Shown: positions 1 through 28,098 of the stretch, piece by piece
Layout: each line of letters starts with the position of its first letter
Position numbering within the stretch: position 1 is the first letter of the stretch
Virus record (IMG/VR): IMGVR_UViG_3300045988_139913
Strand: one strand, 5' to 3'
From: a virus
Lineage: Duplodnaviria; Heunggongvirae; Uroviricota; Caudoviricetes
Length of the DNA stretch: 38,677 nt
Translations under genes and position numbers: made by a program
The notes under the pieces: model-generated
What the model saw: the letters and a program-made list of their open reading frames with translations, nothing else
The model's database searches: none
Told to the model about the DNA's origin: nothing

Positions 1-2
1 CC

Positions 3-350
3 TTCGGGGCGACCGGGTTGTCACATGACCTTGCTGATGAAGACCTGAATCCCGTCACTATCGTCCAGAACTTCACCAATATGTCCGATCCGATGAAAGA
101 GCTGGAAGCAGCGATTGAATCGGGACGCTTTCATCATGACGGCAATCCCATCATGACCTGGTGTATCGGCAATGTGGTCGGCAAAAACATGCCAGGTAAC
201 GATGATTTAGTGAAGCCCGTCAAGGAGCAGGCGGAAAACAAAATCGATGGTGCGGTTGCACTGATTATGACGATCGGTCGGGCAATGCTCAAAGAACCTG
301 ACGATTTCCTCTCATCTCTTGATCCGGACGATGATCTCTTAATTCTATGA
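3..350 (+). CDS. Terminase large subunit, C-terminal part (5' end off-window); belongs to the flanking non-Mu phage
   Basis: Frame open from nt 3 to TGA at 348-350; C-terminal motif [15 protein letters not shown]...[14 protein letters not shown] resembles Terminase_1-family TerL C-termini; sits directly upstream of a portal gene. Confidence 0.5.
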
Positions 351-508
351 AATCACTAATTGCTGATGTTATCGGGCTGGCTGGTTTTGGCCTGCTTACG
401 TGCGGGGTTTACCTGCAGTTTGGTATGGCTCCGGCTCTGATTTTGTCCGGTGCTTTACTGCTGGTGGGCGCACTGGCTATGGCCAGAAGGGGGACGCGTG
501 CTGCTTGA
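347..508 (+). CDS. Small hydrophobic protein (53 aa) between terminase and portal of the flanking phage
   Basis: ATG overlapping the TerL stop (ATGA); predicted product [53 protein letters not shown] is largely one or two TM helices; below the ORF-track size cut-off, read by hand. Confidence 0.3.
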
Positions 509-1604
509 TGCTCTGTTCAGAAGTAAATCACTGGAGAATCCTTCCACCCCGATAACCGGTGATGCCGTTGATACTGATGGGCTGTTCCGGGCAGACGTTT
601 ATGTCAGTCCTGAGACTGCGATGAAACTGGCTGCGGTGTATTCCTGTATCTATGTCCTGTCTTCCAGCCTTGCCCAGATGCCGTTGCATGTTATGCGCAG
701 GCACAAGGGGAAGGTTGAACCCGCACGCGATCATCCGGCGTTTTATCTGGTTCATGATGAGCCCAATACCTGGCAAACCAGCTACAAATGGCGCGAACTG
801 AAGCAACGTCACATCCTTGGCTGGGGGAATGGGTATACCTGGGTGAAACGTAATCGTCGCGGTGAAGTCATATCCCTGGATTGCTGTATGCCGTGGGAAA
901 CGACGCTGATGAATACTGGTGGCCGATATACCTACGGTTTGTACAACGAATATGGGGCGTTTGCGATCAGTCCGGACGATATGATCCACATCCGTGCGCT
1001 GGGTAATAATCAGAAGATGGGGCTGAGTCCGATTATGCAACATGCCGAAACAATAGGCATGGGGATGAGCGGTCAGAAGTACACAGAAAGCTTCTTCAGC
1101 GGTAATGCCCGTCCGGCGGGGATAGTATCCGTTAAAAGCGGACTCAATAAGGAAAGCTGGGGCTGGCTTAAAGATCAGTGGCAGAAGGCATCGCAGGCGT
1201 TACGCCGCCAGGAAAACAAAACCATGCTGCTGCCAGCCGATCTGGATTACAAGGCACTGACTGTGTCGCCAGTTGACGCTCAGATCATTGACATGATGAA
1301 GCTGAACCGTTCAATGATCGCCGGTATTTTCAATATTCCTGCGCACATGATTAATGACCTCGAAAAAGCCACCTTCTCCAATATTTCTGCGCAGGCGATT
1401 CAGTTTGTCCGCTACACGATGATGCCGTGGGTGACGAACTGGGAGCAGGAGCTTAACCGTCGCTTGTTTACCCGCGCTGAGTTAGCCGCCGGGTATTACG
1501 TCAGGTTCAATCTGACGGGGCTTTTACGCGGAACTCCGCAGGAGCGCGCGCAATTCTATCACTTCGCTATTACCGATGGATGGATGAGCCGTAATGAGGC
1601 CCGC
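498..1604 (+). pseudogene. Portal gene of the flanking phage (HK97-like family), 5' portion, interrupted by the Mu-like insertion
   Basis: ORF-track ORF 450..1607; likely GTG start at 498 preceded by AAGGGGG; C-terminal region ...LLRGTPQERAQFYHFAITDGWMSRNEAR is portal-like; reading frame is cut by the prophage end at 1605, whose TGA supplies the stop. Confidence 0.65.
1600..1604. repeat. Target-site duplication CCCGC (right-end side of prophage)
   Basis: CCCGC immediately outside the prophage terminus; identical 5-mer at 38582..38586. Confidence 0.8.
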
Positions 1605-1700
1605 TGAAGCGGCGCACGAAAAGCGCGAAAGCGTTTCAAATAAAATACGAAAACTCAAAACTTTCGCGCTTCAATTGAGACAGTTGTTTTATGTATGTCA
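1605..1700. other. Prophage right end (attR) with transposase-binding repeats (R1-R3 region)
   Basis: TGAAGCGGCGCACGAAAAGCGCGAAAGCGTTTCAAATAAAATACGAAAAC with repeated CGAAA motifs, as in the Mu right end. Confidence 0.75.
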
Positions 1701-2144
1701 GTTTCGTTTACATTTATACGTCTTAAAAATATTCACATCATCTCGGATATAAAGATTTTTTCCTGATTTATCAACGATAAAATACTTTATAACCGCAGGA
1801 TTTCTAGTCAAAGCATAGAGATAATCAGTCCCTTTAATCTTTTCATCCTTGTCTTGTTCGTCAATTTGGCCTGTTTCTATCTGAGTGTATAGTTCACCTG
1901 TATCAAGGTCTGTCCATGACCCCATATCAACGCCCATATGCATACGAATACCGTGGCAGGTCCAAAAACCAGAGGCAGGGGCTTTATTTGCAACACTCTT
2001 ATCTGGATCTATCCCGGCGGACCTTAAGACTGCATCAGCAGCCACTTCAGGATCAAAATCTTTTTCTTGAGCGTGATTGACTGAGGAGGCGGTTAGTACG
2101 AATAGGCTGATGATGGTACTGATTAGCAATTTTGATTTTTTCAT
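1698..2144 (-). CDS. Secreted/periplasmic protein of unknown function (148 aa); moron between mom and attR
   Basis: N-terminal Sec-type signal peptide MKKSKLLISTIISLFVLTASSVNHA; own GGAG RBS; strongly AT-rich relative to flanking phage DNA; two Cys (C63, C146). Confidence 0.7.
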   Translation of the reverse strand: MKKSKLLISTIISLFVLTASSVNHAQEKDFDPEVAADAVLRSAGIDPDKSVANKAPASGFWTCHGIRMHMGVDMGSWTDLDTGELYTQIETGQIDEQDKDEKIKGTDYLYALTRNPAVIKYFIVDKSGKNLYIRDDVNIFKTYKCKRN

Positions 2145-2188
2145 CTAATATGCTCCGTATGTGAGTAAATACATAAATTTATATGATA

Positions 2189-2926
2189 CTAATCAGAACT
2201 GCTTTTTGGGTATGGCTGAATCCTGAATAGTTTGGTATTTAGCCGCTTTCTTGCTCGCTTGTTCAGGAACCTGATGTAGCGATACTGATTAAATTTGTGC
2301 ACCACGGCACGCTCTTTATTAGCCCGTAAATACATGCCTCGTTGTCCACCGCGCTTAATTGCGTTCATCGTTATCTCGTGATACCACTCACCATCCAGCT
2401 CGTAGAACGTGCTTTCATGGCTGCCAATAAAATCAAAATTTGACGCCTGATACACAACGCCAGCACGTCCGCAGCGTTCGTCTGCAAAAGACTGAACCCA
2501 CTCCACTGACGGATACAGTAACCTTATGGTTTTCAGTGCATAACTGATGGCCCGTGATTCAGAGTTGCGGGGCATGTCGTCGTGTAGCCACATGCGGTTC
2601 AACTCCATATAGCCCCGGTTATCCGTTTCAAGCACGACACGACGACCAGAGTTGGGGTTAAGGGCATATCCCCACTGGAGAACGCCAACCAGATCGCGTC
2701 CGCTGAATACTCCCAAGTGGAGGTAAGAGTTATTCACAAAACGGCGGGAATAGTGCTTTGTCTGAATAATTGTGCGGGCCAGCCAGCAGGATATGGTTTC
2801 AACGCGCAGCTCCTTTGAACCATAGCCAACAATCTGGCTTTCATACTCAATAACGCACGGTTTCGTCAGAATGCGTGATTTCTTCTCTTTTCCCACAATG
2901 TTTCTCCGTGGGATGCTCGCAGGCAT
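2189..2926 (-). CDS. mom: Mom DNA-modification protein
   Basis: Overlaps the 3' end of com as in Mu; last gene before the right end region; true start uncertain (ORF-track start is the longest possible). Confidence 0.8.
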
Positions 2927-3035
2927 TCAGCATTATGATATGACGTTTGCAACGCGGACACCTGATTTCAATGTGATCAAAGGAATCCGCCTTAAATAAC
3001 AGTTTGTTGCAGTTTTTACAGCGAATTGATTTCAT
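2847..3035 (-). CDS. com: Com, zinc-finger translational activator of mom
   Basis: 62 aa, [34 protein letters not shown]... with CxxC...CxxC; AGGAGG RBS; matches Mu Com as I recall it. Confidence 0.9.
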
Positions 3036-3093
3036 CTCACCTCCTTTGCATCAATTCGCCACTATCTTAAAAAACATCGTGGGTTGAGTGTGG

Positions 3094-3150
3094 TTATTGG
3101 GGCATAATCGATCTGTATTGCCGATCGATTTGATTGATTCGATCGTCGTT
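3094..3150 (-). promoter_or_regulatory. Pmom control region: dyad TTATTGGGGCATAA (candidate C-activator site) plus three clustered GATC (Dam) sites
   Basis: TTAT-N6-ATAA dyad at ~3094-3107 about 60 bp upstream of com ATG; GATC at ~3110, 3123, 3141; matches the known Dam/OxyR/C-regulated architecture of Mu Pmom. Confidence 0.6.
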
Positions 3151-3711
3151 TTCTATATGCGTTCGTTTCGCGGGGTGTTTTTTATACAGAGTTGACAGAG
3201 CCACATCATAGATCAATGCAACCTGCTTGCGGGGGATTCCTTGTGCTAATAAACGCCCGGCCTGCTCCCATTCCGCTTTGGTTAGTTTAGGTGGTCGCCC
3301 ACCAATACGGCCTTTATTTCTGGCGGCAGCAAGTCCAGCCATCGTTCGCTCGATGATTAGTTCTCGTTCCATTTCAGCCAGGGCACCCATAACGTGGAAG
3401 AAAAAACGCCCCATTGGAGAAGATGTGTCTATGCTGTCGGTAAGACTGCGAAAATTAATCCCTCGCTCCCGTAGTTCCCCGACGAGGGAAATCAGATGTT
3501 TCATGCTTCGCCCGAGGCGATCCAGTTTCCAGACAACCAGTGTGTCACCTTTTTGAAGGCGCTTTAACGCGCGTTTTAATCCAGGTCTGTCTGTCCTTGT
3601 TCCGCTTAATTTATCTTCAAATATTTGTTCACATCCTGCACAAACAAGAGCGTTTCGTTGCAGGTCTGTATTCTGGTCATTTGTTGATACCCTTACATAG
3701 CCAATCAGCAC
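3094..3711 (-). CDS. gin: Gin serine DNA invertase
   Basis: N-terminus MLIGYVRVSTNDQNTDLQRNAL typical of Gin/Hin/Cin/Pin resolvase-invertase family; adjacent to gix site. Confidence 0.95.
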   Translation of the reverse strand: MLIGYVRVSTNDQNTDLQRNALVCAGCEQIFEDKLSGTRTDRPGLKRALKRLQKGDTLVVWKLDRLGRSMKHLISLVGELRERGINFRSLTDSIDTSSPMGRFFFHVMGALAEMERELIIERTMAGLAAARNKGRIGGRPPKLTKAEWEQAGRLLAQGIPRKQVALIYDVALSTLYKKHPAKRTHIENDDRINQIDRQYRSIMPQ

Positions 3712-3765
3712 TCTGGATCTCCCGTTTAAAAGCGCAAATCATGCCATGCAGGCCGGAAACAACCA

Positions 3766-3799
3766 TTATCTAAAACCTCGGTTTACAGGAAACGGTAAA
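3766..3799. repeat. gix recombination site (gin-proximal inverted repeat of G segment)
   Basis: TTATCTAAAACCTCGGTTTACAGGAAACGGTAAA; inverted copy at ~6535..6569. Confidence 0.85.
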
Positions 3800-4736
3800 T
3801 CAGGCTTCTGGCTCATTACAGAAAAACCAGAACGGCGCAGATATTCCGGGAAAAGATACCTTCACCAAAAATATTGGTGCCTGCCGCGCATATAGCTCAT
3901 GGCTGAATATTGGTGGCGATAGTCAGGTCTGGACAACCGCGCAATTTATTTCGTGGCTGGAGAGTCAGGGAGCATTTAACCATCCTTACTGGATGTGCAA
4001 AGGCTCATGGGCTTATGCAAATAATAAGATCATTACAGATACAGGTTGCGGAAATATTTGTCTTGCAGGTGCTGTGGTGGAAGTTATTGGCACTCGCGGC
4101 GCAATGACCATACGCGTTACTACGCCGAGCACGTCCAGCGGTGGCGGAATTACTAACGCTCAATTCACCTATATTAATCATGGTGATGCTTATGCTCCTG
4201 GCTGGCGACGAGACTACAACACGAAAAACCAGCAGCCTGCATTTGCTTTAGGGCAAACAGGAAGCACTGTCGGAAATGATAAAGCTGTTGGCTGGAACTG
4301 GAACAGCGGGGTTTATTGCGCCAGCATCACCGGCGCATCAACATTAATTCTTCATTTCAATATGAATACGGGTAGTTGTCCAGCAGTACAGTTCCGCGTG
4401 AATTATAAGAACGGCGGTATCTTTTATCGTTCAGCCCGTGATGGTTATGGTTTTGAAGCCGACTGGTCCGAATTTTACACCACCACCAGAAAACCTTCAG
4501 CAGGAGATGTTGGTGCATATACTAAAGCGGAATGTAATTCACGATTTATTACAGGTGTCCGTTTAGGAGGACTGTCATCTGTTCAAACATGGAATGGGCC
4601 TGGTTGGTCTGATAAGTCAGGTTATGTCGTTACAGGTTCAGTTAACGGAAACCGTGACGAATTAATTGATACAACTCAGGCAAGGCCAATTCAGTATTGC
4701 ATTAATGGGACGTGGTATAACGCGGGGAGTATTTAA
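3774..4736 (+). CDS. Sv' alternative tail-fibre variable segment (no own start; expressed only after G inversion as Sc-Sv' fusion)
   Basis: Frame open from the gix core (NLGLQETV, identical to the Sc/Sv junction in S) to stop at 4736; ORF track only reports it from an internal ATG at 3993. Confidence 0.75.
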   Translation, partial: NLGLQETVNQASGSLQKNQNGADIPGKDTFTKNIGACRAYSSWLNIGGDSQVWTTAQFISWLESQGAFNHPYWMCKGSWAYANNKIITDTGCGNICLAGAVVEVIGTRGAMTIRVTTPSTSSGGGITNAQFTYINHGDAYAPGWRRDYNTKNQQPAFALGQTGSTVGNDKAVGWNWNSGVYCASITGASTLILHFNMNTGSCPAVQFRVNYKNGGIFYRSARDGYGFEADWSEFYTTTRKPSAGDVGAYTKAECNSRFITGVRLGGLSSVQTWNGPGWSDKSGYVVTGSVNGNRDELIDTTQARPIQYCINGTWYNAGSI

Positions 4737-4738
4737 CG

Positions 4739-5272
4739 ATGATGCACTTAAAAAACATTACTGCTGGCAATCCTAAAACAAAAGAGCAATATCAGCTAAC
4801 AAAGCAATTTAACATCAAATGGCTTTATACAGAGGATGGAAAAAACTGGTATGAGGAACAAAAGAATTTCCAGTCTGATACGTTGAAAATGGTCTATGAC
4901 CATAACGGCGTTATTATTTGTATTGAAAAGGATGTTTCAGCAATTAATCCAGAAGGCGCAAGCGTCGTTGAATTACCTGATATTACAGCAAATCGCCGGG
5001 CTGATATTTCGGGTAAATGGATGTTCAAAGATGGTGCGGTGATAAAGCGAACTTATACCGGGGAAGAGCAGAGGCAGCAGGCAGAGAATGAAAAACAAAG
5101 CCTGTTGCAACTTGTCAGGGATAAAACCCAGCTATGGGACTCACAGCTACGGCTGGGCATCATTTCCGATGAGAATAAACAGAAATTAACCGAGTGGATG
5201 CTCTATGCGCAGAAAGTCGAATCCACAGACACCTCCAGCCTGCCGGTAACATTCCCCGAACAACCAGAATGA
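4739..5272 (+). CDS. U' tail-fibre assembly protein (alternate orientation set)
   Basis: 177 aa immediately after Sv'; tail-fibre assembly (Tfa)-like; convergent with U. Confidence 0.75.
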   Translation: MMHLKNITAGNPKTKEQYQLTKQFNIKWLYTEDGKNWYEEQKNFQSDTLKMVYDHNGVIICIEKDVSAINPEGASVVELPDITANRRADISGKWMFKDGAVIKRTYTGEEQRQQAENEKQSLLQLVRDKTQLWDSQLRLGIISDENKQKLTEWMLYAQKVESTDTSSLPVTFPEQPE

Positions 5273-5398
5273 GAAAGGCCCGTTATCGGGCCTTAATTTT
5301 ACTCAGGCTTTTGTGGCCATCCAGGCTTTTCCATATCCACATGACTGCGGAAAGCAAGGAAATACAAAATAACAAAAATGATAATAATTGTGCTGGTA

Positions 5399-5884
5399 TT
5401 ATAGCGTCGTTTTCACATCCTCTGCGCTGCTCTCTTTGCCGCTTTGTTCGTCTGGAACAGCGGGCCACTCAATATCCGTCGCGGTTGATGTATCAATACG
5501 CATAAGCAGCACACGATATTTTTTCCATTCAGCCAGTACAGTGATTTCTGCTTCTGTCGCCATCCCTGCGTCAACAGCATCCTGCCGCCAGGCAATTTCT
5601 GTGTTCGCAATCTCGGCTAAATCCTTTTTCTTCTGCTCTTTTAATGCGATTAACTGCTCTGTTGTTGGTTCTGATACATCAATCCATGTAGGGAAACCAG
5701 ATTCATCACGGCCTCTCTTTTTTCCCTCTGGCGGTCTTCCCGTAAACTCTTCATACATATCGTTTGTGACTGCCACCAAATCGTCAGGCCATGCGCCTGA
5801 TTTTTCATAGTCCGGTTTCATGGATTCAAAGAAAAACGTATTATTCCTGGCACTATAGAATATTTTACTGGACATGATTAACAC
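5399..5884 (-). CDS. U: U tail-fibre assembly protein (currently expressed set)
   Basis: 161 aa directly downstream of S, Tfa-like. Confidence 0.75.
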   Translation of the reverse strand: MLIMSSKIFYSARNNTFFFESMKPDYEKSGAWPDDLVAVTNDMYEEFTGRPPEGKKRGRDESGFPTWIDVSEPTTEQLIALKEQKKKDLAEIANTEIAWRQDAVDAGMATEAEITVLAEWKKYRVLLMRIDTSTATDIEWPAVPDEQSGKESSAEDVKTTL

Positions 5885-7065
5885 CCCACACCAATACAGA
5901 AGAATGGTTTAGAAACAGCAACCCCAGACCTTTCCATTAACGTGACCTGCATATCGCGATCATTTAATCTTTTAACACCCGCAATTGCACTTGCTATCGA
6001 GTCACCAGCAACGTTACAGGCTAACAAACCAAAGCAACGAACAGGCCAACCAACAGGAAACGGGGCAGATGCCCAGCCACTGGCATCAGTATTTCCCCAA
6101 CACCATTGAAAAATGATGCCATTTGGAAAACGTACCCAGCCAGCATCGGCCATCGCCTGGGTAAAATCACTGTTTTTTGTATACCCCTGAATGCTCCATC
6201 CATTCTGGGGAATTAACTGCCTGATATTTCCATCCAAAGTAAATGCAACCTTGCGGCGGTCAGAAATATTGCCTGCCGGAGACAATGCAACATCTATGTA
6301 GTTCGCGCCATTTTCCATTATTCCGCAAATGAGCGATGACATAATCGCTCCGCCAAATGAGAAATCGACTCCATTTGCACTTCCTGCAACCGTGCTCTTG
6401 TTTCTGATGTGAATACCAGAAAAGCCATTATCTTTTTCAATAAGTAATTCATTCCCAATTAACGAGAGAATGCCCTTGATAATCACATCACCGTTAACCA
6501 CCCCGCCATATGTTGATAACGCTTCCGAAGCTAATTTTACAGTTTCCTGTAAACCGAGGTTTTGGATAAACAGCGGCTTATTGGGAATATCTGCTCCGTT
6601 CCGGTCTTTTGCCAGACGGGCATTGGCATTATCCATCGCAATTTTCACCGCTTTTGCGGTGGCTGCCAGCGTTTCACTGGGGCTGTCAGTGGCACTGGTT
6701 AGCTGAACGAGTCCTTTTTTGTTCAGGCTGGCATCCCAGATATCCAGATTTTCACGTGCTGTACGCTGTGCTGATGCCCCGGCAGTTTTAATTTCGCTGA
6801 GGTTATTTTTTATCAGCAGCGCGTTATTGCTCATAATGGCTTTAATGGACAGTGCAAGCTGGTTTAATTTTGTTTTATCCGGTTGAATACCGGCTTCTTC
6901 CAGCGTGTTTAATAACTCCGCCTGCACAATATTAAACCAGTCCATGCCGGGCCATGTGATAACATTATTCCCGTCACCTTCTGAAAACCAGCGAACGATA
7001 GCACTACGCTGGGCGGATACGGGCGGCATGACGGTTACGCCGCTGTCGTTATCAATATAAAACAT
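5878..7065 (-). CDS. S: S tail fibre (Sc constant part ~6538..7065 fused to Sv variable part inside G)
   Basis: 395 aa; spans the gix site at ~6538-6561 (NLGLQETV); start overlaps stop of upstream gene (TAATG). Confidence 0.85.
   Translation of the reverse strand: MFYIDNDSGVTVMPPVSAQRSAIVRWFSEGDGNNVITWPGMDWFNIVQAELLNTLEEAGIQPDKTKLNQLALSIKAIMSNNALLIKNNLSEIKTAGASAQRTARENLDIWDASLNKKGLVQLTSATDSPSETLAATAKAVKIAMDNANARLAKDRNGADIPNKPLFIQNLGLQETVKLASEALSTYGGVVNGDVIIKGILSLIGNELLIEKDNGFSGIHIRNKSTVAGSANGVDFSFGGAIMSSLICGIMENGANYIDVALSPAGNISDRRKVAFTLDGNIRQLIPQNGWSIQGYTKNSDFTQAMADAGWVRFPNGIIFQWCWGNTDASGWASAPFPVGWPVRCFGLLACNVAGDSIASAIAGVKRLNDRDMQVTLMERSGVAVSKPFFCIGVGC
6535..6569. repeat. gix recombination site inside S (Sc/Sv junction)
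   Basis: TTTCCTGTAAACCGAGGTTTTGGATAA, inverted repeat of the site at 3766..3799. Confidence 0.85.
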
Positions 7066-7607
7066 TAGTTATCTCCGTCATGGTAAACAAATTTATAAAT
7101 CTGATGTGCGGGTTTATATTTCTCCAGTAAACATTCCAGCGCACCCGATTCATAAACACGTAACGGCGTCAGAACATTATCCAGCACCGTTGCGTTGCGA
7201 TAATTTTTAATACCGTAAATATTGACCTGCGTAACCCACTGGCCTTCTGTGGAATCCGTCAGCCTGACGGTAAAACCGTACTGCGCAGCCAGCCATTCAT
7301 AAAAGCGCCGACTCAGATTGCCGGTCATACGCATTTTATTCGCGGCAGCCCGCTGGCGTTCGGACAGGGTGCCGTTTTCGCTGGTACAGTCCGGCAACCC
7401 CAGAAATGATTCCCACTCCCCCAGATACCAGCGGGATGTGGACGGGAAACGCTCCCGCAGCATTTGCCGCGCATCATCCGCCGCAGTGGCAATCACGTCG
7501 CTGATGGCCTGCGCCAGCGCAGATAATTTGCTGTCGGGGCTTTTATTCCAGGCAAGCCCTGACGGCAGTAATTGCAGAAAGGCCGTCTGATAGGGTGTTA
7601 CAGCCAT
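7065..7607 (-). CDS. Tail protein (Mu gp48-like)
   Basis: 180 aa between baseplate R and fibre S, Mu gene order. Confidence 0.7.
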   Translation of the reverse strand: MAVTPYQTAFLQLLPSGLAWNKSPDSKLSALAQAISDVIATAADDARQMLRERFPSTSRWYLGEWESFLGLPDCTSENGTLSERQRAAANKMRMTGNLSRRFYEWLAAQYGFTVRLTDSTEGQWVTQVNIYGIKNYRNATVLDNVLTPLRVYESGALECLLEKYKPAHQIYKFVYHDGDN

Positions 7608-8680
7608 TCAATTGTCCCCGGTGTTAACAGTTCCGTATTCTCCGAACGCTGGATCTCTGTCGGGAAACGCACTTCAAAATCATCCAGACCGGTAACACCT
7701 GCCACCGCACGGATAATACGGGAGGGGGCAAGTGCGCCGCCCGGCGTCACCTCATTAAAAAACATGGTATTAATGGCGTGAGTAATAGCCTGTTTCAGTT
7801 CGGCTGTCTTCGGTGATATATAAATCCGTGGATTTACCGGCTTTGCCTTTGGCGCAAATACCGTGACATTTACACCATCAGGCTGCCCGACAATCAGGCC
7901 GGTTATCGGGTCAGTATGACCGGCGATATAATCCGCCACACGTTCCACATCTGCCGGTTGTGGAAAAATATTGATCCGGTTATCCATAACAAACGTCACC
8001 CCGACTGTGCCACCGCCTTTCCATGTCGGAAAACACCAGGCACGGGTAACGCCGCTGACTTCACGTGCCCAGCGGACGTAATCAAACTGATTACCGCCGA
8101 ACGGAGGATACTGGACACGATATTCCAGCCGTGACAGCAGCTCCGCTGCACTCTCAATATCTGCCCCACCGGAAAACCCTTTTACAGTGATGGCATCGGA
8201 AACAACACAGGCAACCGGGGTGATCAACGTTAAAAGGGTATTCTCACCGGTATTTCCTGCTTCACCGGCAGCCAGTGCGGTAACGGTAATTTCCGTCGTT
8301 CCTGCACGGTCAATCACAATGGCATCAGCCAGGCTGTAAACCACACCATCAGCACGCTGCCAGCGTGTACCGGCAGGAATGGTGGTCGCTGCCGATGTGG
8401 TGACAGTCAGCGGGCCGCTGGCGGCTGTCGCCTGTTTGCGGCGCACGCCCCAGAACCGGCAGTGCTCCAGCAACTCATCTTCATCTGCTGTCGACGGGAT
8501 AATCTGCCGTCCAACCCATGAAATATGCTCGTGACAACCGGCAGCAAGGCCTGCCTGAGCATAAGCAATGGCACTCAGCGTTTTTTCACGGGCCTGAGGC
8601 CAGCTACCCGGCAGGCGCTGTTCAATATTCTGTTCTGTACGGGCAATCAGCGATGATAATGTCGGTGGTGAATAAGCCAT
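7598..8680 (-). CDS. R: Baseplate J-like protein
   Basis: 360 aa; position and size as Mu gp47. Confidence 0.75.
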   Translation of the reverse strand: MAYSPPTLSSLIARTEQNIEQRLPGSWPQAREKTLSAIAYAQAGLAAGCHEHISWVGRQIIPSTADEDELLEHCRFWGVRRKQATAASGPLTVTTSAATTIPAGTRWQRADGVVYSLADAIVIDRAGTTEITVTALAAGEAGNTGENTLLTLITPVACVVSDAITVKGFSGGADIESAAELLSRLEYRVQYPPFGGNQFDYVRWAREVSGVTRAWCFPTWKGGGTVGVTFVMDNRINIFPQPADVERVADYIAGHTDPITGLIVGQPDGVNVTVFAPKAKPVNPRIYISPKTAELKQAITHAINTMFFNEVTPGGALAPSRIIRAVAGVTGLDDFEVRFPTEIQRSENTELLTPGTIEWL

Positions 8681-9118
8681 TTAAACCCCGTTAAATGCTG
8701 CTTTAAACTCATAAGGAATAACGGAACCATCCGGTAATGTCAGTGCAATGTAGAGGTATAACCAGCCCTGATGTAACTGTTCCACTCTGACGTTAATCGC
8801 ACTTACCCGGCCCGCTGTTTTCAGCCATTCCAGCGCCTCTTCGGCATACCCTCTGGCGCGTTCCAGCGTATCCGGTGTGGCTTTTTCACGTGATAACAGC
8901 CACAACCGCGAACCGATGGGGCGGTCGCGGTAACTGTCACCCCACCATCCACGGCGATCATCTGAACCATCCGGCAGCGTGTCAGAATCCAGCGCGCGCC
9001 GGTCGGTAAACAGGGAGATTGTCACATCGGTTGTCAGGCTGTCGTCGGTCAGCATATCAATGCCATCCTGTGCAATATCGCCGCGTCCGTTCGTCCAGAT
9101 AATGGCTAAATCGGTCAT
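8681..9118 (-). CDS. W: Baseplate protein (GPW/gp25-like)
   Basis: 145 aa; Mu order V-W-R. Confidence 0.75.
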   Translation of the reverse strand: MTDLAIIWTNGRGDIAQDGIDMLTDDSLTTDVTISLFTDRRALDSDTLPDGSDDRRGWWGDSYRDRPIGSRLWLLSREKATPDTLERARGYAEEALEWLKTAGRVSAINVRVEQLHQGWLYLYIALTLPDGSVIPYEFKAAFNGV

Positions 9119-9708
9119 TGCATTGGCCCCGTGGTTCCGCCGCTGTCGCCACGGTGGATATGCTTATCCGTCGATTTGCCATTGATGATGGCATCCGGGG
9201 CAGTAATATTGCTGTCGAACTGGCTTTTACCTTTAACGCCCAGACCTTTCTGGATCTCAACGTCGCCGGTAAACGTGGTTCTGGGTGTGTCAACTGTCAT
9301 ACTTTCATCAGCGTAAACCTCAACCGTTTTACAGGTAATGATGCAGCGTCCGTCCTTTGTCAGCCTGATACGATGCCCCTCGTGGTGGTAAATGCCTGCA
9401 TCACCCGGTTCAAGATTTGTCGGGCGGTAGCGGCGGTCTTCCACCACAACAGCAATCCCCTGATCACGTTGTGCGCCCACACAGGCAATCAGCGCCTCTG
9501 CTCCCGGCAGGGGAACGCTGAAATGCCCGTAATTTTGCAGGCGCTCCACTTCATCAGATTCCTCATCATCCAGCAGGCCGACCTGCAGGTTCTGAACCTT
9601 TCGCCCGTCGTTAATCACGTTAACAACAGCGCGCGCAAGCATCAGGCGCACACGACGCATCAGCGGCATCAGCAGGCGGTTCAGGGCGGAATCATTTACT
9701 CTTTCCAC
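9115..9708 (-). CDS. V: Baseplate assembly/spike protein
   Basis: 197 aa; Mu order Q-V-W. Confidence 0.75.
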   Translation of the reverse strand: MERVNDSALNRLLMPLMRRVRLMLARAVVNVINDGRKVQNLQVGLLDDEESDEVERLQNYGHFSVPLPGAEALIACVGAQRDQGIAVVVEDRRYRPTNLEPGDAGIYHHEGHRIRLTKDGRCIITCKTVEVYADESMTVDTPRTTFTGDVEIQKGLGVKGKSQFDSNITAPDAIINGKSTDKHIHRGDSGGTTGPMQ

Positions 9709-10835
9709 GGCGGCGTTTTCTCCGGGTGTCTGCGATAATAATCTTCAACCAGCGCATCAATACCGCCGTTACTGTCGTCGCCTTTCCTGTTTTTACGGTC
9801 GCTTTCAACCGGCACCAGAAAGCCTTCGCGTGGTGCAAGGCTGACGCGGGTTTTCAGCCCGTCCTGGTCATTCAGTATCAGGGTGACTTTGCTGACCAGT
9901 AATTCTGTGGTTTTGATGGCATATTTCGATGCATCAATAGTGACCAGCAGGTTCGGCATCCAGAGTTGCCCGTCCTTGCGTGTCCATCCGTCAATTTCTG
10001 CCTCAAAGGTGATGGATTTTGCCAGTCTGCGGCGTTGCTCACGCAGGGCGCGGGCCTGTGCATCCTTCGCCGTAATTTTGCTGTCGGCAATGATGATCAT
10101 CGGTCTGTAACGGGTCACATTACTGTCAGTGGCGGTCCCTTTCCGGGAGACGATACTTTTCGCATCAATATCATCACCCTCAGCACCGTTTGCGCGGGCA
10201 TACCCCTTGACGGTGTATTCGCTGAACCGGTCGCGGAAGTCTTCCTCAAAATCCAGTGTCAGCAGATTTTCTCCGAGAACCAGCTCATCAGTGGCTGTGC
10301 TGGCAGCCCGGCTGAATACCAGCTCTCCTGCGGCATTGCTGGTCATCAGTACACCGCGTGCGCGGGAGGCACGCACCAGCGCCTCATAAACGGTTTCTGA
10401 ATGGTCCAGCGTGAAGCCGGGAAAAGCTGCCGAACTTTCCTTATCGGAAAGCTCCCAGCGAACGGTAACGCCATAAGGAGCGCACAGGTCACGCGCAATC
10501 TGTTCCAGTGTGCGGTTTTTCCACTGCCCGCCACTGTAAACGGCAGCACAGTCAATCAGGTCAGCCGTTTTGTCACGTCCGGCGACAGTGATTTTCATAC
10601 TGTCAGCGGTCATCTGGCGTCGCCGTGAATCGATATAACCGGTGCAGACAATCTGCCCCTCGATTTCGAGCGTGAACTTCTTCCCCGGTGCCAGCCCGGA
10701 TAAATCCGTGCCCGGTGGCACGTTCACCCCCAGCTCAAAATATCCGGCTACGGATTCAATCGAGCGGGTGACAGAGACTGACGTCCAGCCGGTAAAAAGC
10801 CTGCCATCCGTTCGCAGCGTGACGGTATTACTCAT
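9696..10835 (-). CDS. Q: Baseplate hub / tail protein (Mu gp44-like)
   Basis: 379 aa downstream of P. Confidence 0.75.
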
Positions 10836-12315
10836 TAATCACCTCAATACTGACGCCACCGGGAACAAACAACGGGTTGCTGATACCGTTCCTGCGGGCC
10901 AGCCGTTGCCAGTTCCGGCTGTTTCCTGTGTAACGGTACAGGGCCACCATTGCAGGCATCGTCTCCGGCAGGCGGTGCGTTTCACTGCCCGCCAGTTGCA
11001 GCCCGCGTTTTTCCAGGTCGGCAACAACCAGCAGACGCAGTTGCGTAAGCTGAACGCTGTCTGTCGAAAAGCCCTGCTCAGATGCCGTCAGAATGACGGT
11101 ATCCAGTGCAGCCCCCAGCATGGCGGCTGTTTTTCCGATATCGGACACACTTTCAAATACCGGGGGCGTGGCTGTACCACTGTCTGAAAAGGATACCTGT
11201 GAAAAGCCGCCGTCCGGGGTTATGGCAGTTAACTGTAACTGTCCCTGTGTGACAGTAGCAGATGTGCTGCTGGCCCCGCTGGCTGTGCCGGTTGTGGTGG
11301 ACGGGGCATCCAGTACAGGTGCACGGGCGGCATTATCCATCCGGCGACTGAAATCCAGTGCCGCAGTCAGTGCCTGACTGGCAGCTTCTGCCCGGTATGT
11401 CTGCGCCGCTGCCAGCATGACGTAGTTCAGTGTGGCAATATTTTTTTCTGCAACCGGACTGTTGTACGAGGTTGTGATTGTCCCCTGTCTGCCTGCGGTG
11501 GCGGCATGGCGAGGTTCGAATCGCTGCGCCAGACGGTTCCATGTGGAAAATGCTGTCCGGGTATCGCATAACGATGAAACGCCGGACAGCGCCCCCATCA
11601 GCGAGGAGGCCAGCATGGCAGGCTGGTTAATCAGGCTGGTCACAGAGCCTTTCATCGCAGAAAGCGATCCCATCAGACCGCTGACAGTCTGCGTAACCCC
11701 CAGATTGTCCACCGCATCACTGATATCATCGATGACACCGGTTACAGCTTCCATCACGGCGGTTGCCGCCGCAGTGCCATCTTTTACGGTTTGCCAGACA
11801 GAGGACAGCGTATCTCCCAGAGAACCGGTTACAGCAACGGCCTGTGCAGGTACGGCTGCACTGGTGTCTGTCTCTGCGTCCGGGGCAGTATCCTGCAACG
11901 ACGGATAAACGGTAACGGTGAACGCGTAATAATTCAGTTCATCCGCTTTAGTGCGGCATTCCCATGAATCCACCATGACGTCCACAGTGCCGAAATCAGG
12001 ATGTACCAGCTCACCGCTACCCGGAGCATCAAGAGCATCCATCAGCGCACCCGCTTCATCTCTGGCTGTTTCTGCGTTGCTGTTCAGAATGCAGGCGCTG
12101 AATGTACGGGAGCGAAGCTTTTTCCCCAGGTCATTGACGCCGCCGGTATCACGTAACGGGTACTCGCGTTTAACCAGGCGACGTCCGCCAGCCTGTTTTT
12201 GCTCCTCGATGACGAGAAACGGCACGTTACGGAACGTGCCTTTGCCGGTTGTTTTCTTACCACCGCTGATTTTATCCCGGACAGCATTAACGGCATTTAA
12301 AGCATCTTCAAACAT
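10828..12315 (-). CDS. P: Tail/DNA-circularisation protein (Mu gp43-like)
   Basis: 495 aa immediately after tape-measure gene. Confidence 0.75.
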
Positions 12316-14392
12316 GGTTTTCCCAGCCTGTAATGTAGTTATCGCCCGCGTAAATATTCAGCCCCATACCATCCTCGGTGACACGGGAACTGGCCAGACG
12401 TAACCCCTCGCCAAGTTCGACGCGCAGCGAGGCTTCCGCATTCACTTTTTGTTCCTGCGGTTCCTTATCCGGGGCCGTCCATTTCTGATACAGGTCGGTT
12501 ACAAAACCGCCCAGATACTCCCCGGCGACACTGCCCAGCGTGGCACCGGCAACCGTACCCAGCGGTCCGGCAAGGCTGCCAACGGCACCGCCGAGCCATG
12601 CACCGGCTGTACTGCCAATTGCACCTGCTTTTTCATGGGTTGACGCCTGCTCATCCATCAGGACGGGGGCAAGCTGGAGTGCCCCCATTACCGGGCCACC
12701 CAGACGTGACAACGCACGACCGGCACCTTTCCCCATCCAGCCCAGCGCCCCGGCACCTTTTGTCACAACCCGACCGATCGCACTGCCTGCAAGTTTGTTT
12801 CCGATACCGGAAAACCACCCGCCAACAGCACGCCCGGCATCAGCCAGCTTTCCGACCGTTCCCGTAACCAGTTGCCCGGCAGCACTGCCTGCAAGCCTGC
12901 TCAGAAGACCGGATTTACCGGGTAAAGGTAATGGTGCAGGCCGTGCTGTTACCGGTACGCCGGGTGGGGGTAATGCCAGTACAGGGCGTGGTGCAGGTAA
13001 TGCCAGCGGCTGTGGCCCGGACAGCAATAACGGCTGGCGGGGTAACAGCGGGGCCATTCTTCCGCCGCTCCGTCCGCGACGACCGCCGCCACTCCCGTAG
13101 CCACCAAATCCACGGGGCCAGTTGATGACAAACACACGCTGAATGCCGATACCCTGCAACAGCGTCTCAGACGTCATGGCATCCGGGACCGGCAGACCTG
13201 CCTGCCCACGTTTGCGGTTTCGCATCCAGCGCCACATACGACGCCCGGTTTTAAACGGATAACTGGCAACCTGCCATGAGGGTTTTGCCACGGCCCAGCC
13301 TGCTCTCAGGGCTTTATTGGCAAGCCAGACAGACACCAGAACAGCAGCCAGTTTTTTCAGGCTGACAATATTCTGGTCAACCCATGCCAGCGCATCTTTA
13401 CCCGGTTTCAGCCAGCGCCATAATTCCTGCGCCGCGATTTTTACCGTTCTGAACGTGGTCAGAAATTTCTGACCAATGTTTTCTGCCAGTGCGTCAAGTT
13501 CCCCGGATTTATCCGCCATGTCGTGCCAGTTAAGCACCCGGCGCATCTCGTTCTTGATTTCTTCAAAGGGGCCGCTGTTTGCCACCTTTATGCGAAATTC
13601 AAGCAGGTTAGCTTCCATCTGGGCGAACATCCCGTCCCAGGAGTTCATCGCACTGGCCTGTGCACCTTTTGACTGTTCTGACAGCGTTCTGAATACCGTC
13701 AGAATGGATTTCAGACCCAGCTTGCCTTTTTCACCTTGTTTGCGGATATCCTTAACGTCTTTACCCAGTGCATCCGCCAGCGTCTGGTAAACGTTAATAC
13801 CGTAACCGGTCAGCAGGTTGGCATCCGCCGCTGTGATTTGCTGGCGGGCAAACATCTGTTTCAGTTGCAGTGAGGCACCCTGTGCAGTTGGTAAATCCCA
13901 GCCGTGCATGGCCCCCTGATCCTGCAACATGGTGATGAACTGTTTCGTCTGTTCATCCGTCATGCCGAAGCCTTTCGACGAACGGATCTCATCAAGAACA
14001 CCACTCAGCCCCCACGTGGTGTCCTTCGCGTTCTGCTTCGCCCAGGCCATCATGGCCTGCGCTCTGACCTTATCGCCGTGATACAGCGAGTTCATGGCGA
14101 TGATCTGCTGCTCACGCTGGGCGGCTGCACCAATAAACAGTTTATTGGCGGTGTAACCCACGCCAGCGATACCCAGCGCCCCGGCTGACAGCATTCGGAA
14201 TGTACGGGTTGACAGAGAACCCATTCTGTCAATGGCACCAGAAACGCGCACAACCTCCATACGCAGGGCACGAAGGGAACTTTGTCCGCTACGGGACAGG
14301 GCGTTTATCTGGTTCGAATACTGGCGGGAACGCCGGGAAAGATTGCCATTAAGATCAATAATGACAGACGCCTTTAAGCGTTTCCCGGTCAT
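12308..14392 (-). CDS. N: Tail tape-measure protein
   Basis: 694 aa, longest tail gene, Gly/Pro-rich low-complexity core, located between chaperone-like Y and P. Confidence 0.85.
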
Positions 14393-14536
14393 AGAGATTT
14401 CCTGATTTAACGGTGATATTGAGAGAGGGTTTTAGCCTGCTGGCAGTGCCGGAAAAAGCGGGACAGCGGAAGGGATAAGGCCCATTCCGGGCCACTTTTC
14501 AGAATAACGCCAATCGCTGTCGCCGCTTTCTCAATA

Positions 14537-14971
14537 TCATTCCGGCACCGCAGCCACTCGCCCCCGTTCTTGCGTCAGCGATGCCGCCACAGCCATGTCG
14601 TACATTTCTGTGGCCAGCGACAGACGCTGGAAGTCATCGACAGACAGCTTACGAATCAGCGCCATCGACAACGGGCCTTTGATGCAGCCCACGCTGGCAA
14701 TCTGTCGGCGCAGCATTTCCAGTCCCATCCGGGACGGGGAACTGACCAGCACCGGACCTTCCTTGCTCATTACCAGCTTTTCAGCAGCCGCCTGTGCATC
14801 AATCATATCGCCTGCGGTCAGTTCACGCAGTGTCACGTCATACTGCATTTCAGTCTCGTCACCGGTGCCGAACGGCAGGCCGTCTTTCAGTTTCAGCACG
14901 CCGGACTGAATTTCTGCCACAATGCTGTCATGCAGTTCCTGTGCTTCAGGACCTAAATTCATTTCGTCCAT
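14537..14971 (-). CDS. Y: Tail assembly chaperone-like protein (Mu gp41-like)
   Basis: 144 aa, between tail tube and tape measure. Confidence 0.7.
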   Translation of the reverse strand: MDEMNLGPEAQELHDSIVAEIQSGVLKLKDGLPFGTGDETEMQYDVTLRELTAGDMIDAQAAAEKLVMSKEGPVLVSSPSRMGLEMLRRQIASVGCIKGPLSMALIRKLSVDDFQRLSLATEMYDMAVAASLTQERGRVAAVPE

Positions 14972-14980
14972 TGTTTCCCC

Positions 14981-15337
14981 TTATGCAATGCGTTTGCTTT
15001 GTTTTGCCATCAGTACCAGCGAAATTTCGCCGCCGTCGTTTTTCGGTTCATCTGCCTGCCAGGCATTCGCCATCATCCAGGTTTCACCGGTGTCTGCCTG
15101 AAACTCTGCCGTGATATTTTCCCAGCCGATGATTTCATCCAGACCGATATCACCACCGCCCGGAATTTTGCATTCCAGCTTTGCGGCACGTGGTTTACCT
15201 TTCCAGCCATAAACCCGCGAGCCGGTCACTTCTTCACGGGTGATGCCGGAAGGTGTGAAGGAGGCCCCTTCCATCGTTTCAAGCTCCATGCCATTGACAC
15301 GGATGAACGCCACCCCCTGACGCTGATTTCCAGCCAT
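14981..15337 (-). CDS. M: Tail tube protein
   Basis: 118 aa directly after sheath gene. Confidence 0.8.
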   Translation of the reverse strand: MAGNQRQGVAFIRVNGMELETMEGASFTPSGITREEVTGSRVYGWKGKPRAAKLECKIPGGGDIGLDEIIGWENITAEFQADTGETWMMANAWQADEPKNDGGEISLVLMAKQSKRIA

Positions 15338-15346
15338 AAATGCTCC

Positions 15347-16834
15347 TTACAGAATGAACTGAACTTGTGCCGCGAAAATGCGGAACTGGTTAATCAGATT
15401 CGGGCCGCACAGCACATCAAGACGGTCTTTGTCGTCCTTGTTACGTGCCACATACAGCTCCTCTTTGAACGTGTCGAAATCCTCGACCAGTCCGGCGTTT
15501 TCCCATTCTTCAAACAGTGCCAGCAGTTCCGTTTTGATCACGGATGGCGTCACCACGGCCTGACCGGTGGCAAAGCGGGTGCCATCACTTGCCAGCTTGT
15601 AGTTCGGGAATTTCTGCGTGATGCGGGTTCGCAGCGAATAACGCAGATAACTCAGCGTGGCGATGGTATTCACGTTCAGATAAGACGGATCACTGTCACC
15701 GTACTTGTTTGTGCGGTACATCGTGATCATGCGTTCAATCTGCATTTCACCACCATCATTCACGTTAAACGTGGAGATGCCGTCAAACAGCAGCGCATTA
15801 CGTTCTGACCAGGTAAAACGATCCCCCACCGCAGGCGGCATTCTTCCGGGCAACGTCAGCGTCTGGAGCGGACGCGCCGGGTCGATGGAAAGCGCCTGGC
15901 TGGCAACGGCACACAGTGTGGCGGCGTACAGATATGACGGTTCCGGTGCACCGGCAATCCCCATACAGGAGATCAGATGGTCATTACGACTGACACCAAA
16001 CGTAGAAATATCCCCATACGTGCCGGACAGCACTGTCACGGCAAAACCATCAGCCTGATTGACCGGTCCCCAGCGTTCCTGCAATTCAGTGCGTAACAGA
16101 TTCAGGTTCGGTTCATCGGTATAGGGCATCACAATATATTTGTATTGCAGATCGCCCATTCCCGCGATACTTGCGCTGATATCCGGGTTGCCATTTTTCC
16201 CGGAGGCGGCTTTGAATGCCGTGATAATCCCGTAAGGGGTGGTTTCACCCGCGTAATAGTTCCAGCGCACGTCCACGGCAGATAATGCACCCGTAAATTT
16301 TGCACTCAGAACCACATCTGCATGGGTGTCATCATCTCCGCTGTCTGCGCGAACTTCTGCCGTCACCGGTAAATCCGGCTGGCCTTTGATTCGGGCAACC
16401 AGCAGGTCAGCCAGCGCCGCTCCCGTTGCACCTGCTGCGACAGATACCGCCAGTCGCTGACCGGCAATGTAAGTCACAAGCGAGCCGTTTTCGCCTGCCG
16501 TTCCTGACAGTGAAATTTCACCGACAGCAGCATTACCGGTGCCGTTCCCCTGCGGAATACACCACAGCTCCGCCACGCGGTTAGCGTTCAGGAATGCATC
16601 TGCCATCAGTGCCAGCATGGAACCCTGACCAAACGCCGCACTGGCCTGTGAGCCGGAACGGATACGGACAGGCACGTTTGGTGCCGCACTGGCTTTACTT
16701 CCGCTTTGCCCGAACATCAGCACGCGCTGACGGGGTGCCGGTGTTCCGCTGACGGCATTACTGTTATCAAATTCGATATACGTCAGAGGAACGCGAACAT
16801 CTGACGGGATCGCGTTAAATGAAATATCGCTCAT
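15347..16834 (-). CDS. L: Contractile tail sheath protein
   Basis: 495 aa; size and position as Mu gpL. Confidence 0.85.
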
Positions 16835-17037
16835 TTCGATTTACTCCGTTTTTTCGGCGCAGCGTCGGTATCATCCGCCGTGTTTTCGGTGTTCCCGACT
16901 TCAACCACATCACCGGCTGCAAGGCGACGTATCCAGAAACTGTTACGGGGCTTTTCTTCTCCCTCCGGAGCCAGTAATTTCATCGTGAGCGGGTCACGGA
17001 TGGCTTTTCCCGCTGCGGGTTTAATTTTCAGCATCAT
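16831..17037 (-). CDS. Small protein (Mu gp38-like)
   Basis: 68 aa, translationally coupled between K and L. Confidence 0.55.
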
Positions 17038-17569
17038 GATCCTTTTCCTGATTCACATTGATATGTGCGGCAAATTCCGGGGTTTCGTCCGGGAATTTCC
17101 AGGTCTGCCAGTGACGCTCGTAATCATCCAGCGAATCCATGTCCACCACGGACGGCAGCGGGGTAGTGCCACTGAACAGAACGCCGTAAAGCACCACACC
17201 GGCATTGATACGGTTGTCGTCACAAAGATTTCTGACCTGCGTCAGTCTCATCCCGGTGGTCGGGCCAAACGTCTGACCGTTAACACCGGCAATCAGTCGC
17301 TCCACAATCTGATAAATACCGGGCCGGTTTACCTGTTCCCCGTTCAGCAACTCCGCCACGACAAAAAATGCCCAGCGACTTTCAACTTCCCGACGCGTAC
17401 GCCCCTCACCACAGCCCATCCATGCCAGAAATACCGATGGCGGGGCCAGAAAGAGACGGTGCACATCCTCGTTAGTCCATGTGCCGGTAAGGGGTTCCAC
17501 CTGCCGCAGGGTTGCCCCAAACAACTCACGAACGCGCGCCAGCAGTGCGGCTTCGGTTTCTTCCAGCAT
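17021..17569 (-). CDS. K: Head-tail completion/neck protein (Mu gp37-like)
   Basis: 182 aa, Mu order J-K. Confidence 0.7.
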   Translation of the reverse strand: MLEETEAALLARVRELFGATLRQVEPLTGTWTNEDVHRLFLAPPSVFLAWMGCGEGRTRREVESRWAFFVVAELLNGEQVNRPGIYQIVERLIAGVNGQTFGPTTGMRLTQVRNLCDDNRINAGVVLYGVLFSGTTPLPSVVDMDSLDDYERHWQTWKFPDETPEFAAHINVNQEKDHDAEN

Positions 17570-17994
17570 CAGATAAACCCCTTCTGTTTTCGTGAGAAGA
17601 CCGGCGCGTCAGACTGCACCTGCACAAGGTTTTCACCATCCGGCGAGGCTGCCGTCCTGCTTTCCACGCCGGGATCTGTTTTGCCATCGCGCACCTGTTC
17701 CAGCCAGCGCACTGTGTCCCTGTAGGCAGCGGTGATCTGCTCGGTGGGTTGTGATTCATTCAGATAAAACCAGGCCACCACGCAACACTGCCGTTTCAGC
17801 AGTGAGGGGACGACGGTAAGCGGCAGAACAAAGCGCGCGGCGAGATAGCCATCAATAAAGGCCGAGGCATCTGCCAGTGCCTGTTCTGCCACGGCATCAT
17901 CCGGCTGCCCGTCCGCTGTTTTAGGGCGGGTGAGAATATCCAGCCGCGTACGTGTATAGCGGGCGCACAGGTCATTTACCGTCGCGTAATTCAT
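17569..17994 (-). CDS. J: Head completion protein (Mu gp36-like)
   Basis: 141 aa, Mu order. Confidence 0.7.
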   Translation of the reverse strand: MNYATVNDLCARYTRTRLDILTRPKTADGQPDDAVAEQALADASAFIDGYLAARFVLPLTVVPSLLKRQCCVVAWFYLNESQPTEQITAAYRDTVRWLEQVRDGKTDPGVESRTAASPDGENLVQVQSDAPVFSRKQKGFI

Positions 17995-18401
17995 GCATCC
18001 GCCTCAGCCAGCGCCGCTTTGATTTGCGCACTGCTCACCGGTTCCCCCAGCGCCGCACTGACGGCTTTCACTTTGGGTTCTCCCCCTGCGGTAAAGTGCT
18101 CCGGGTTTGCCTTATCCAGACCGGCAACGGTCGCACGGATACGGGTATTCAGATCGCCCACACCCAGAACGTCCAGCCCCCCAGCCTCAGCGAGCGTTTC
18201 TGCTGACGATGCAGATACCACAGACAGCACGCTGTCGGCACGAATGATCGCCAGTTGTTCTTCGGTGACTTCCACGGTGTTTTCACCACGTGTAAAGGCG
18301 ATTCCGGCGCGGCGGTAGACCGGACGAAGGCATTTAATAATCGCCGTGCAAGTGATGCGAGAAGTGTCCAGCCGTTGTGAATTAAGCGAAGTGCCTGACA
18401 T
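17991..18401 (-). CDS. Conserved head-region protein (Mu gp35-like)
   Basis: 136 aa, strong RBS AAGGAGGAG, directly after major head gene. Confidence 0.65.
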   Translation of the reverse strand: MSGTSLNSQRLDTSRITCTAIIKCLRPVYRRAGIAFTRGENTVEVTEEQLAIIRADSVLSVVSASSAETLAEAGGLDVLGVGDLNTRIRATVAGLDKANPEHFTAGGEPKVKAVSAALGEPVSSAQIKAALAEADA

Positions 18402-18433
18402 AACACATGCTCCTCCTTTTCCTTTAAATCAGG

Positions 18434-18461: not shown

Positions 18462-18467
18462 CGACGG

Positions 18468-25624: not shown

Positions 25625-25631
25625 AACCCTC

Positions 25632-28046: not shown

Positions 28047-28098
28047 GCTTCCCTGAAAAAATGCTCTGATGGCAGTCTAAAAAATCAGGTGGCAGATG

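Follow-up and report, generated by a model that had tools for sequence, protein, structure and literature searches.

A Mu-type prophage nested in the portal gene of an SfV-like prophage in gut Escherichia coli

Results

Insertion anatomy and the interrupted allele

The window, that is the whole stretch of 38,677 bp that was analysed, is very likely a chromosomal contig of a gut E. coli lineage in which a Mu-type phage integrated once into the portal gene of an SfV-like prophage and has been inherited in that position since. The window is an entire metagenome contig (ENA ERZ1741935 NODE_164), assembled from short reads by metaSPAdes at a coverage of 13.87. A Mu-type element of 36,977 bp with the termini TG…CA fills positions 1605..38581, as found by extraction of the end sequences by script. 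From 1605 onward the sequence reads TGAAGCGGCGCACGAAAAGCGCGAAAGCGTTTC / TGAAGCGGCGCACGAAAA, which is the reverse complement of the attR end of Mu and D108, and the attL end of the element reads ...GAATCAATACA / ...CACTTCAAGTGAATCAATACA, the last base being 38581. The element is flanked by two copies of the pentamer CCCGC (Table 1). The initial annotation had placed a Mu-like phage inside the portal gene of another phage, and the junction coordinates and the 5-bp duplication that it gave were all confirmed. The cut portal frame is stopped at once by the in-frame TGA at 1605-1607, the opening triplet of the Mu end. Beyond the right copy of the duplication the portal frame is open again from 38587 (AFEDMNPVEGLDEML...), and the sequence following this in-frame resumption is the one that had first been written for it. 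The last 9 codons of the portal gene and its stop fall outside the contig. The left flank had been interpreted as the C-terminus of a terminase, a small membrane ORF and the first 369 aa of an HK97-like portal protein, and matches to Pfam, RefSeq and the HK97 portal structure 8CEZ bear this out. At the matching place in intact prophages the 53-aa ORF carries the RefSeq label hypothetical protein.

Table 1. Positions of the resident prophage, the target duplication and the inserted element in the window.
Feature	Position	Strand	Basis or remark
Terminase large subunit (TerL), 3' end, last 116 codons, nuclease domain, resident prophage	3..350	+	Pfam TerL_nuclease PF20441, 1.4e-17; same annotation in 99.8%-identical genomes
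53-aa small membrane (hydrophobic) ORF between terminase and portal	347..508	+	RefSeq WP_000838376.1; PHROG 7105, 3.2e-22
Portal gene, codons 1-369 of 408, HK97 family, start GTG at 498	498..1604	+	PF04860, 2.7e-98; 8CEZ, 1.3e-38
5-bp target duplication, left copy CCCGC	1600..1604	.	Script extraction of junctions
Complete Mu/D108-type transposable prophage, inverted, attR at 1605 and attL at 38581	1605..38581	-	LR595867 positions 150-37126
gin	3094-3711	-	
Invertible G segment, gix inverted repeats 3766-3808 and 6527-6569	3766..6569	.	Comparison with the Mu reference and LR595867
MuB gene	34338..35276	-	Converted from LR595867 3455-4393; identical protein with stop
MuA transposase gene, 662 aa	35315..37303	-	Identical to LR595867 'DNA transposition protein'
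D108-type repressor c, 174 aa, transcribed toward attL and the portal remnant	37718..38242	+	ORF; D108 covers the early region, Mu does not
5-bp target duplication, right copy CCCGC	38582..38586	.	Script extraction of junctions
Portal gene resumed, codons 370-399 and one base	38587..38677	+	38582-38677 is 100% identical to ETEC H10407

Removal of the element in silico, by joining 1..1604 to 38587..38677, gives an allele of 1,695 bp. It was found that this joined allele holds a single open portal frame of 399 codons up to the end of the window. The prediction that the joined flanks would form a continuous ORF with similarity to Phage_portal (PF04860) was correct, as the frame scores 329.5 bits (cut-off 39.1) over the full profile, positions 2-321 of 321. 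Homology of the portal to a solved structure (8CEZ, 1.3e-38) and to the portal family PHROG 12 (5.6e-134) agrees with this. The joined allele matches 1,922 of 5,426 complete E. coli genomes, 879 of them at a coverage of at least 80% and at identities of up to 99.8%, so that the uninterrupted allele which had been expected in related genomes is indeed present there. The best genome matches (99.6-99.8%) run across the joint in a single ungapped piece and are annotated as terminase large subunit, hypothetical protein and phage portal protein. Identity to phage SfV is 99.76% over the 1,695 bp. A match of 5 bp alone would occur by chance once in 1,024 cases; because the duplication goes together with an ungapped alignment of 99.6-99.8% across the joint, the arrangement is not a product of chance.

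The same evidence bears on the possibility that the window is an assembly chimera of a Mu-type phage and prophage fragments from another genome. The contig does come from a short-read metagenome at a depth of about 14x, and the sample evidently also contains the uninterrupted allele. However, a chimera is barely credible in view of the matching 5-bp duplication at the two junctions, the flanks that rejoin perfectly in frame, and the left junction, which was reproduced by three assemblers from separate samples (metaSPAdes NODE_164, MEGAHIT k119_5008 and a Logan contig). This explanation was therefore rejected.

The resident prophage and the effect of the insertion

The window shows no more than 1.7 kb of the resident. 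Because the joined flank matches SfV (U82619) at 99.76% identity and the module order is that of the prophage in ETEC H10407, the resident is, as judged from these comparisons, an SfV-like temperate myovirus. The homologous prophage of H10407, which is 99.7% identical over the joined flank, is complete (~39 kb) and adjoins dusA. It starts with a lambdoid early region, followed by holin, endolysin and Rz genes, an HNH endonuclease and a P27-type small terminase; then come TerL, the 53-aa ORF, the 408-aa portal, the HK97 protease and capsid, and a Mu-like contractile tail. From TerS through capsid, in the packaging and head module, it is 99.3% identical to SfV. The gene order TerS, TerL, 53-aa ORF, portal, protease and capsid is thus common to SfV and H10407, and the portal gene is undivided in both, whereas in the window it is split after codon 369. 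The flanks belong to a phage morphogenesis module and not to ordinary chromosomal genes, as the initial annotation had proposed.

It had also been presumed that the resident, having a split portal gene, is unable to package. The cut aligns to residue 387 of the 424 residues of the HK97 portal (8CEZ). Order in the HK97 portal is limited to residues 32-398, and its crown, which faces the packaged DNA, is made by the C-terminus (PMC10359639). The truncated protein lacks 39 residues, which by the HK97 alignment would correspond to ~11 ordered crown residues and a disordered, flexible tail. Because the loss is limited to these parts, truncation of the portal by itself need not be lethal, and the proposition that it alone proves inactivation was rejected, since the cut lies near the C-terminus and takes away about 11 ordered residues of the crown. 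Loss of packaging is nevertheless likely on account of the size and orientation of the insert. The insertion would approximately double the spacing of the packaging sites of the resident, giving a composite of ~76 kb for a head built for ~39 kb. Because the composite exceeds the capacity of the head, the SfV-like resident has very probably lost its viability as a virus. The case is made stronger by the fact that the protease, capsid, connector and tail genes would now lie 37 kb beyond the late promoter; the 37-kb insert is mostly transcribed opposite to the late genes of the resident and would separate the downstream head and tail genes from that promoter. In the order of the H10407 prophage, the lysis cassette of the resident type stands upstream of the break. 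Therefore induction of the resident would still kill the cell, and the host would gain no obvious protection.

The inserted Mu-type element

Compared over its whole length with Escherichia virus Mu_3F6 (LR595867), the element shows a single real SNP and an inverted G segment. The substitution is a T-to-G change in the stop codon of the tape-measure gene, which leads to a readthrough of 4 codons and a product of 694 residues, as against 690 in LR595867; the other apparent mismatches fall in the overlapping gix repeats. The G segment is oriented as in the Mu reference and opposite to LR595867, the record of which carries it flipped relative to the element. Of the 55 proteins of LR595867, 54 are encoded identically; with stops included the number is 53, and the exceptions are the tape measure and S, the latter because the C-terminus of S varies with the orientation of the G segment. 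MuA, MuB, the repressor/ner switch and the full set of late genes are all encoded. By the measure of its gene set the Mu-type element is intact, in keeping with what had initially been stated of it and with its near identity to LR595867.

Alignments of the element run out to both ends of the D108 record (GQ357916; positions 1 and 37235), with 98.4% identity in the late region and 97.7% in the early region. The element shares with D108 the c-ner immunity region and the two termini. With Mu_3F6, D108 and Mu (AF083977), of the genus Muvirus, the element has in common the TG…CA termini, MuA and MuB, gin and the G segment, com/mom and the 5-bp duplication. It differs from Mu by its D108 early region and by an additional 148-aa secreted ORF between mom and attR, and the variable part of its expressed tail fibre differs from S and U of Mu. 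A literature search for Mu_3F6, and for a paper on a Muvirus wastewater coliphage, found no report.

Recurrence of the junction in other assemblies

The exact 369-aa product of the truncated portal gene is called on 14 public contigs, namely that of the window and 13 further ones, and ten retrieved contigs were aligned. One of them (L004; ERZ27239376, MEGAHIT k119_5008) spans the left junction, extends 2.2 kb into the Mu element and differs from the window only at 18, 44 and 75. A second (L006; Logan ERR14032891) spans the left junction by 115 bp and has SNPs at 18, 44, 75 and also at 140. On the Mu side L004 and L006 are identical in sequence. Thus the identical insertion is found with two flank haplotypes, and the SNPs which distinguish them all lie at 18-140, ~1.5 kb from the junction, in the mosaic terminase gene. 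Haplotype B without the insertion is present in the closed genome Res13-Sevr-PER07-33. By sequence comparison the SNPs of haplotype A (18, 44, 75) were not clearly imported from terminase genes of the SfI, SfII or SfIV type. Because the differences between the haplotypes are confined to 18-140 and the Mu side is identical, the insertion is read as one ancestral event, inherited in an E. coli lineage, with a small recombination tract acquired later.

The right junction was seen in the contig of the window only; it was absent from GTDB genome contigs, and the exact left junction was absent from IMG/VR viral contigs and JGI metagenome contigs. A junction-spanning query gave no match covering more than 50% in the 5,426 complete E. 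coli genomes.

Six of the aligned contigs stop exactly at 1604 (ERR525727, ERR525728, SHAO19 SAMEA5617746, BAEC15 SAMEA2579945, ERZ27278212 and ERZ27239375), and another (L007) ends at 1605 with the G of the uninterrupted allele. ERR525727 and ERR525728 belong to PRJEB6456, which is labelled human gut metagenome. The stops at precisely 1604 imply that the samples concerned also contain an uninterrupted copy, perhaps from another strain or from a second prophage. These ends imply that in such samples the insertion is absent from some cells or from some copies of the prophage. L004 itself stops exactly at 3793, where the identical gix core ends, therefore both orientations of the G segment exist in that sample, as is expected of a growing lysogen population with active Gin.

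Integration sites and the question of a hotspot

The choice of integration site by Mu is nearly random. For the Mu_3F6-type phage, the 148-aa protein next to attR is represented by 3,273 blocks in the public collection, and in its ten longest contexts it lies at ten separate chromosomal loci, none of which is a phage (0/10). Mu-type prophages were present in 83 complete E. coli genomes, and the genes flanking them include L,D-transpeptidase, ygfK, nrdE, ssuA, potE, pduA, an Rhs gene and yehR.

It may be asked whether the portal site is a Mu hotspot, or a target in a selected strategy against competitors, so that the junctions would have arisen independently and would reflect true inter-phage conflict. 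The presence of the insertion in two flank haplotypes could be taken in this sense. So could the Mu-type prophage of STEC719, one of the 83 genomes, where it abuts the tail tube gene of a P2-like prophage, and the target itself, since CCCGC fits the preference of Mu: its central C-C-G agrees with Y-S-R of N-Y-S-R-N and four of its five positions agree with CYSRG. However, the consensus 5'-CYSRG is degenerate and the preference amounts to only ~7-fold in vivo (PMC7350765). The haplotypes differ by only 3-4 SNPs, all at 18-140, which looks like a recombination tract in a mosaic TerL gene, and the Mu sides of L004 and L006 do not differ. The same position, orientation and phage variant would be very unlikely to recur in independent events, and 10/10 other prophages of this type stand in ordinary chromosomal genes. 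Independent junctions at a favoured or selected site are hence highly improbable. The idea of an insertion hotspot was rejected, as one Mu variant occupies one site and the other ten loci all differ.

Contig ends and packaged DNA

The ends of the window raise another possibility, that the contig is not chromosome and represents DNA packaged in a Mu-type virion, cut in situ by the headful mechanism from the copy in the portal gene. Its host flanks of 96 bp at attL and 1,604 bp at attR, with a total of 38,677 bp, resemble packaged Mu DNA and are within the ranges for headful Mu virions (50-150 bp at attL, 0.5-3 kb at attR, ~39 kb in total). Packaging of Mu takes on average 100 bp on the left and 1.5 kb on the right (PMC7350765), or ~50 bp and ~2,000 bp (PMC5557969). 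In its deposited record, LR595867, the same phage has 149 bp of non-Mu sequence on the left. Moreover, standard k values and SNPs fail to explain the two ends of the window: the de Bruijn-graph arithmetic fails for the ends of the metaSPAdes contig, in which the overhang of 96 bp would need k=97, and five complete genomes showed no polymorphism at joined positions 0 or 1696.

Against this, copies of the phage are scattered by replicative transposition before they are packaged. The flanks of virions are therefore heterogeneous, and a single clonal junction would not be expected from their assembly. The junction is also spanned in two further assemblies whose flank haplotypes differ. A scaffold from another assembly (L011) equals window 1..1604 exactly, therefore both coordinates are branch points of the graph. 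The starts of MEGAHIT contigs in TerL obey the k arithmetic in four cases; the k119 and the k141 contigs agree on a branch at window position -194, and a k127 contig (L012) implies one at 267, beside the mosaic boundary at 269 of SfI/II/IV. A virion origin of the contig is thus unlikely, and if true it would alter only the physical source of the DNA, while the insertion itself would stand.

Discussion

We infer the following history for the integrated, inherited insertion. The host lineage would have carried an SfV-like myovirus prophage with a P27-type small terminase, an HK97-type portal, protease and capsid, and a Mu-like tail. An ancestor would have been infected by a Mu-type phage of D108 immunity, essentially identical to Escherichia virus Mu_3F6. 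MuA is known to carry out strand transfer into a 5-bp staggered target (PMC7350765), and nick-and-join strand transfer of this kind into the staggered CCCGC at portal codon 368-369, with repair of the 5-nt gaps, would have produced the target duplication. The insertion would have been tolerated because the morphogenesis genes of a prophage are dispensable to the host, and would then have been inherited, probably as a neutral change. The Mu-type prophage retains all its genes, and its G segment would still be actively inverted.

The initial annotation had regarded the arrangement as a direct record of inter-phage conflict by insertional inactivation. This goes further than the data, considering the near-random integration of Mu, the ten contexts at ten different loci and the lack of protection to the host. 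Prophages make up several percent of the genomes of wild E. coli and are dispensable. For this reason an occasional surviving Mu insertion inside a prophage is to be expected. The nested arrangement thus points to chance and tolerance, not to targeted phage warfare. It is decidedly unlikely that the nesting has been kept because silencing the virions of an SfV-like competitor benefits the Mu-type phage or the host, or that the contig derives from clonal virions packaged in situ from this one site, which would mean that Mu-type particles were made in the infant gut with no preceding round of replicative transposition.

The two phages and the mechanism are of known kinds; the nested allele is absent from the closed genomes searched and present in several gut metagenome assemblies. 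It offers a tidy natural case in which one temperate phage has knocked out another by transposition, and the finding of the junction in several gut metagenome assemblies indicates that prophages nested in this way can last and spread. The case leaves the picture of Mu biology and of phage-phage conflict as it was. Two cautions follow for the handling of such sequences. Mu-type contigs with host flanks of ~0.1 kb and ~1.6 kb may be packaged DNA or assembly fragments, and prophage callers will merge both phages into one 'viral' contig.

A literature search for a Mu-like prophage inside another prophage found no relevant report. The event resembles classical Mu insertional mutagenesis, which reportedly goes back to Taylor in 1963, in mechanism and in outcome, i.e. 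quasi-random intragenic integration, a 5-bp duplication and a polar null allele. In the genetics of the 1970s Mu insertions into lambda and other prophages were in use. Classical Mu mutagenesis is a laboratory procedure, whereas the insertion in the window arose naturally in a gut E. coli lineage and is seen in several metagenome assemblies. The Mu-type prophage of STEC719, beside its P2-like neighbour, is likewise a natural counterpart of the classical Mu insertion into a prophage.

Interrupted and uninterrupted portal alleles

It was found that six independent assemblies (L005 and L008-L012, public contigs carrying the truncated portal product) break exactly at the Mu junction, window position 1604. 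Another such contig, L007, terminates at 1605, where its base is G. The coincidence of six contig ends with the junction indicates that the interrupted and the uninterrupted portal alleles occur together in those samples, which in turn implies the presence of a second SfV-like prophage or of a second strain. Within the inserted element, the independent contig L004, which crosses the left junction, ends at window 3793, the exact limit of the identical gix core. Thus, both G orientations must be present in the sample of L004.

In the 3' end of TerL, T, C and A at window positions 18, 44 and 75 form a haplotype that is common to the window, L005, L011 and L012, and no 100% match to it was found among 5,426 complete genomes. 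At these positions L004 and L006, the other carriers of the insertion, show C, T and G, which is the common haplotype. The three SNPs span only 58 bp, and the cluster looks like a recombination tract in a mosaic terminase gene.

Contig ends and other insertions

Host DNA extends for 1,604 bp beyond attR and for 96 bp beyond attL in a contig of 38,677 bp, and these flank lengths and total have the same geometry as headful-packaged Mu virion DNA. Neither standard k-mer sizes nor known SNPs account for either end of the contig (1; 38677). In the deposited genome of Mu_3F6 (LR595867), positions 1..149 are non-Mu DNA bearing no relation to the portal flank, and the terminus is exactly attR; LR595867 therefore derives from the same phage in a separate event of insertion or packaging.

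E. coli STEC719 (NZ_CP041411.1, 9001..11192) provides a second natural example: the attL end of a Mu-type prophage borders on or overlaps a P2-like prophage's tail tube gene, and the neighbouring sheath gene carries a frameshift.

Features of the inserted element

Features of the inserted prophage
Feature	Position	Strand	Remark
148-aa ORF	1698..2144	minus	between mom and attR; signal-peptide-like N-terminus
Invertible G segment	3766..6569
Silent set	4077-4736, 4739-5272		96-97% identity to Mu S' and U'
Chaperone of expressed fibre	5399-5875	minus	37% identity to Mu U
Expressed fibre	5878-7065	minus	395 aa
Tape-measure gene	~12308..14392	minus	SNP near 12322
D108-type repressor gene	37718..38242	+	reads outward over attL

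The G segment lies in the same orientation as in the Mu reference and opposite to that of LR595867. The silent set is close to that of Mu. The expressed fibre resembles Mu S over the N-terminal ~207 residues only, and the identity of its chaperone to Mu U is only 37%. The sole real substitution between the window and LR595867 is T to G in the tape-measure stop codon, which lengthens the tape measure to 694 residues as compared to 690 in LR595867, and the longer frame overlaps the start region of the next gene.

Downstream of the repressor gene lie the portal 3' remnant (to 38677) and then the protease and capsid genes of the resident, and it is conceivable that transcription reads out from the repressor gene into resident genes in the lysogen. 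The 148-aa ORF, which D108 and Mu_3F6 share but Mu lacks, matched no Pfam family and may be a moron or lysogenic-conversion gene. Its PHROG match is 15648, a group of unknown function, and 3,273 blocks of the public collection contain the identical protein.
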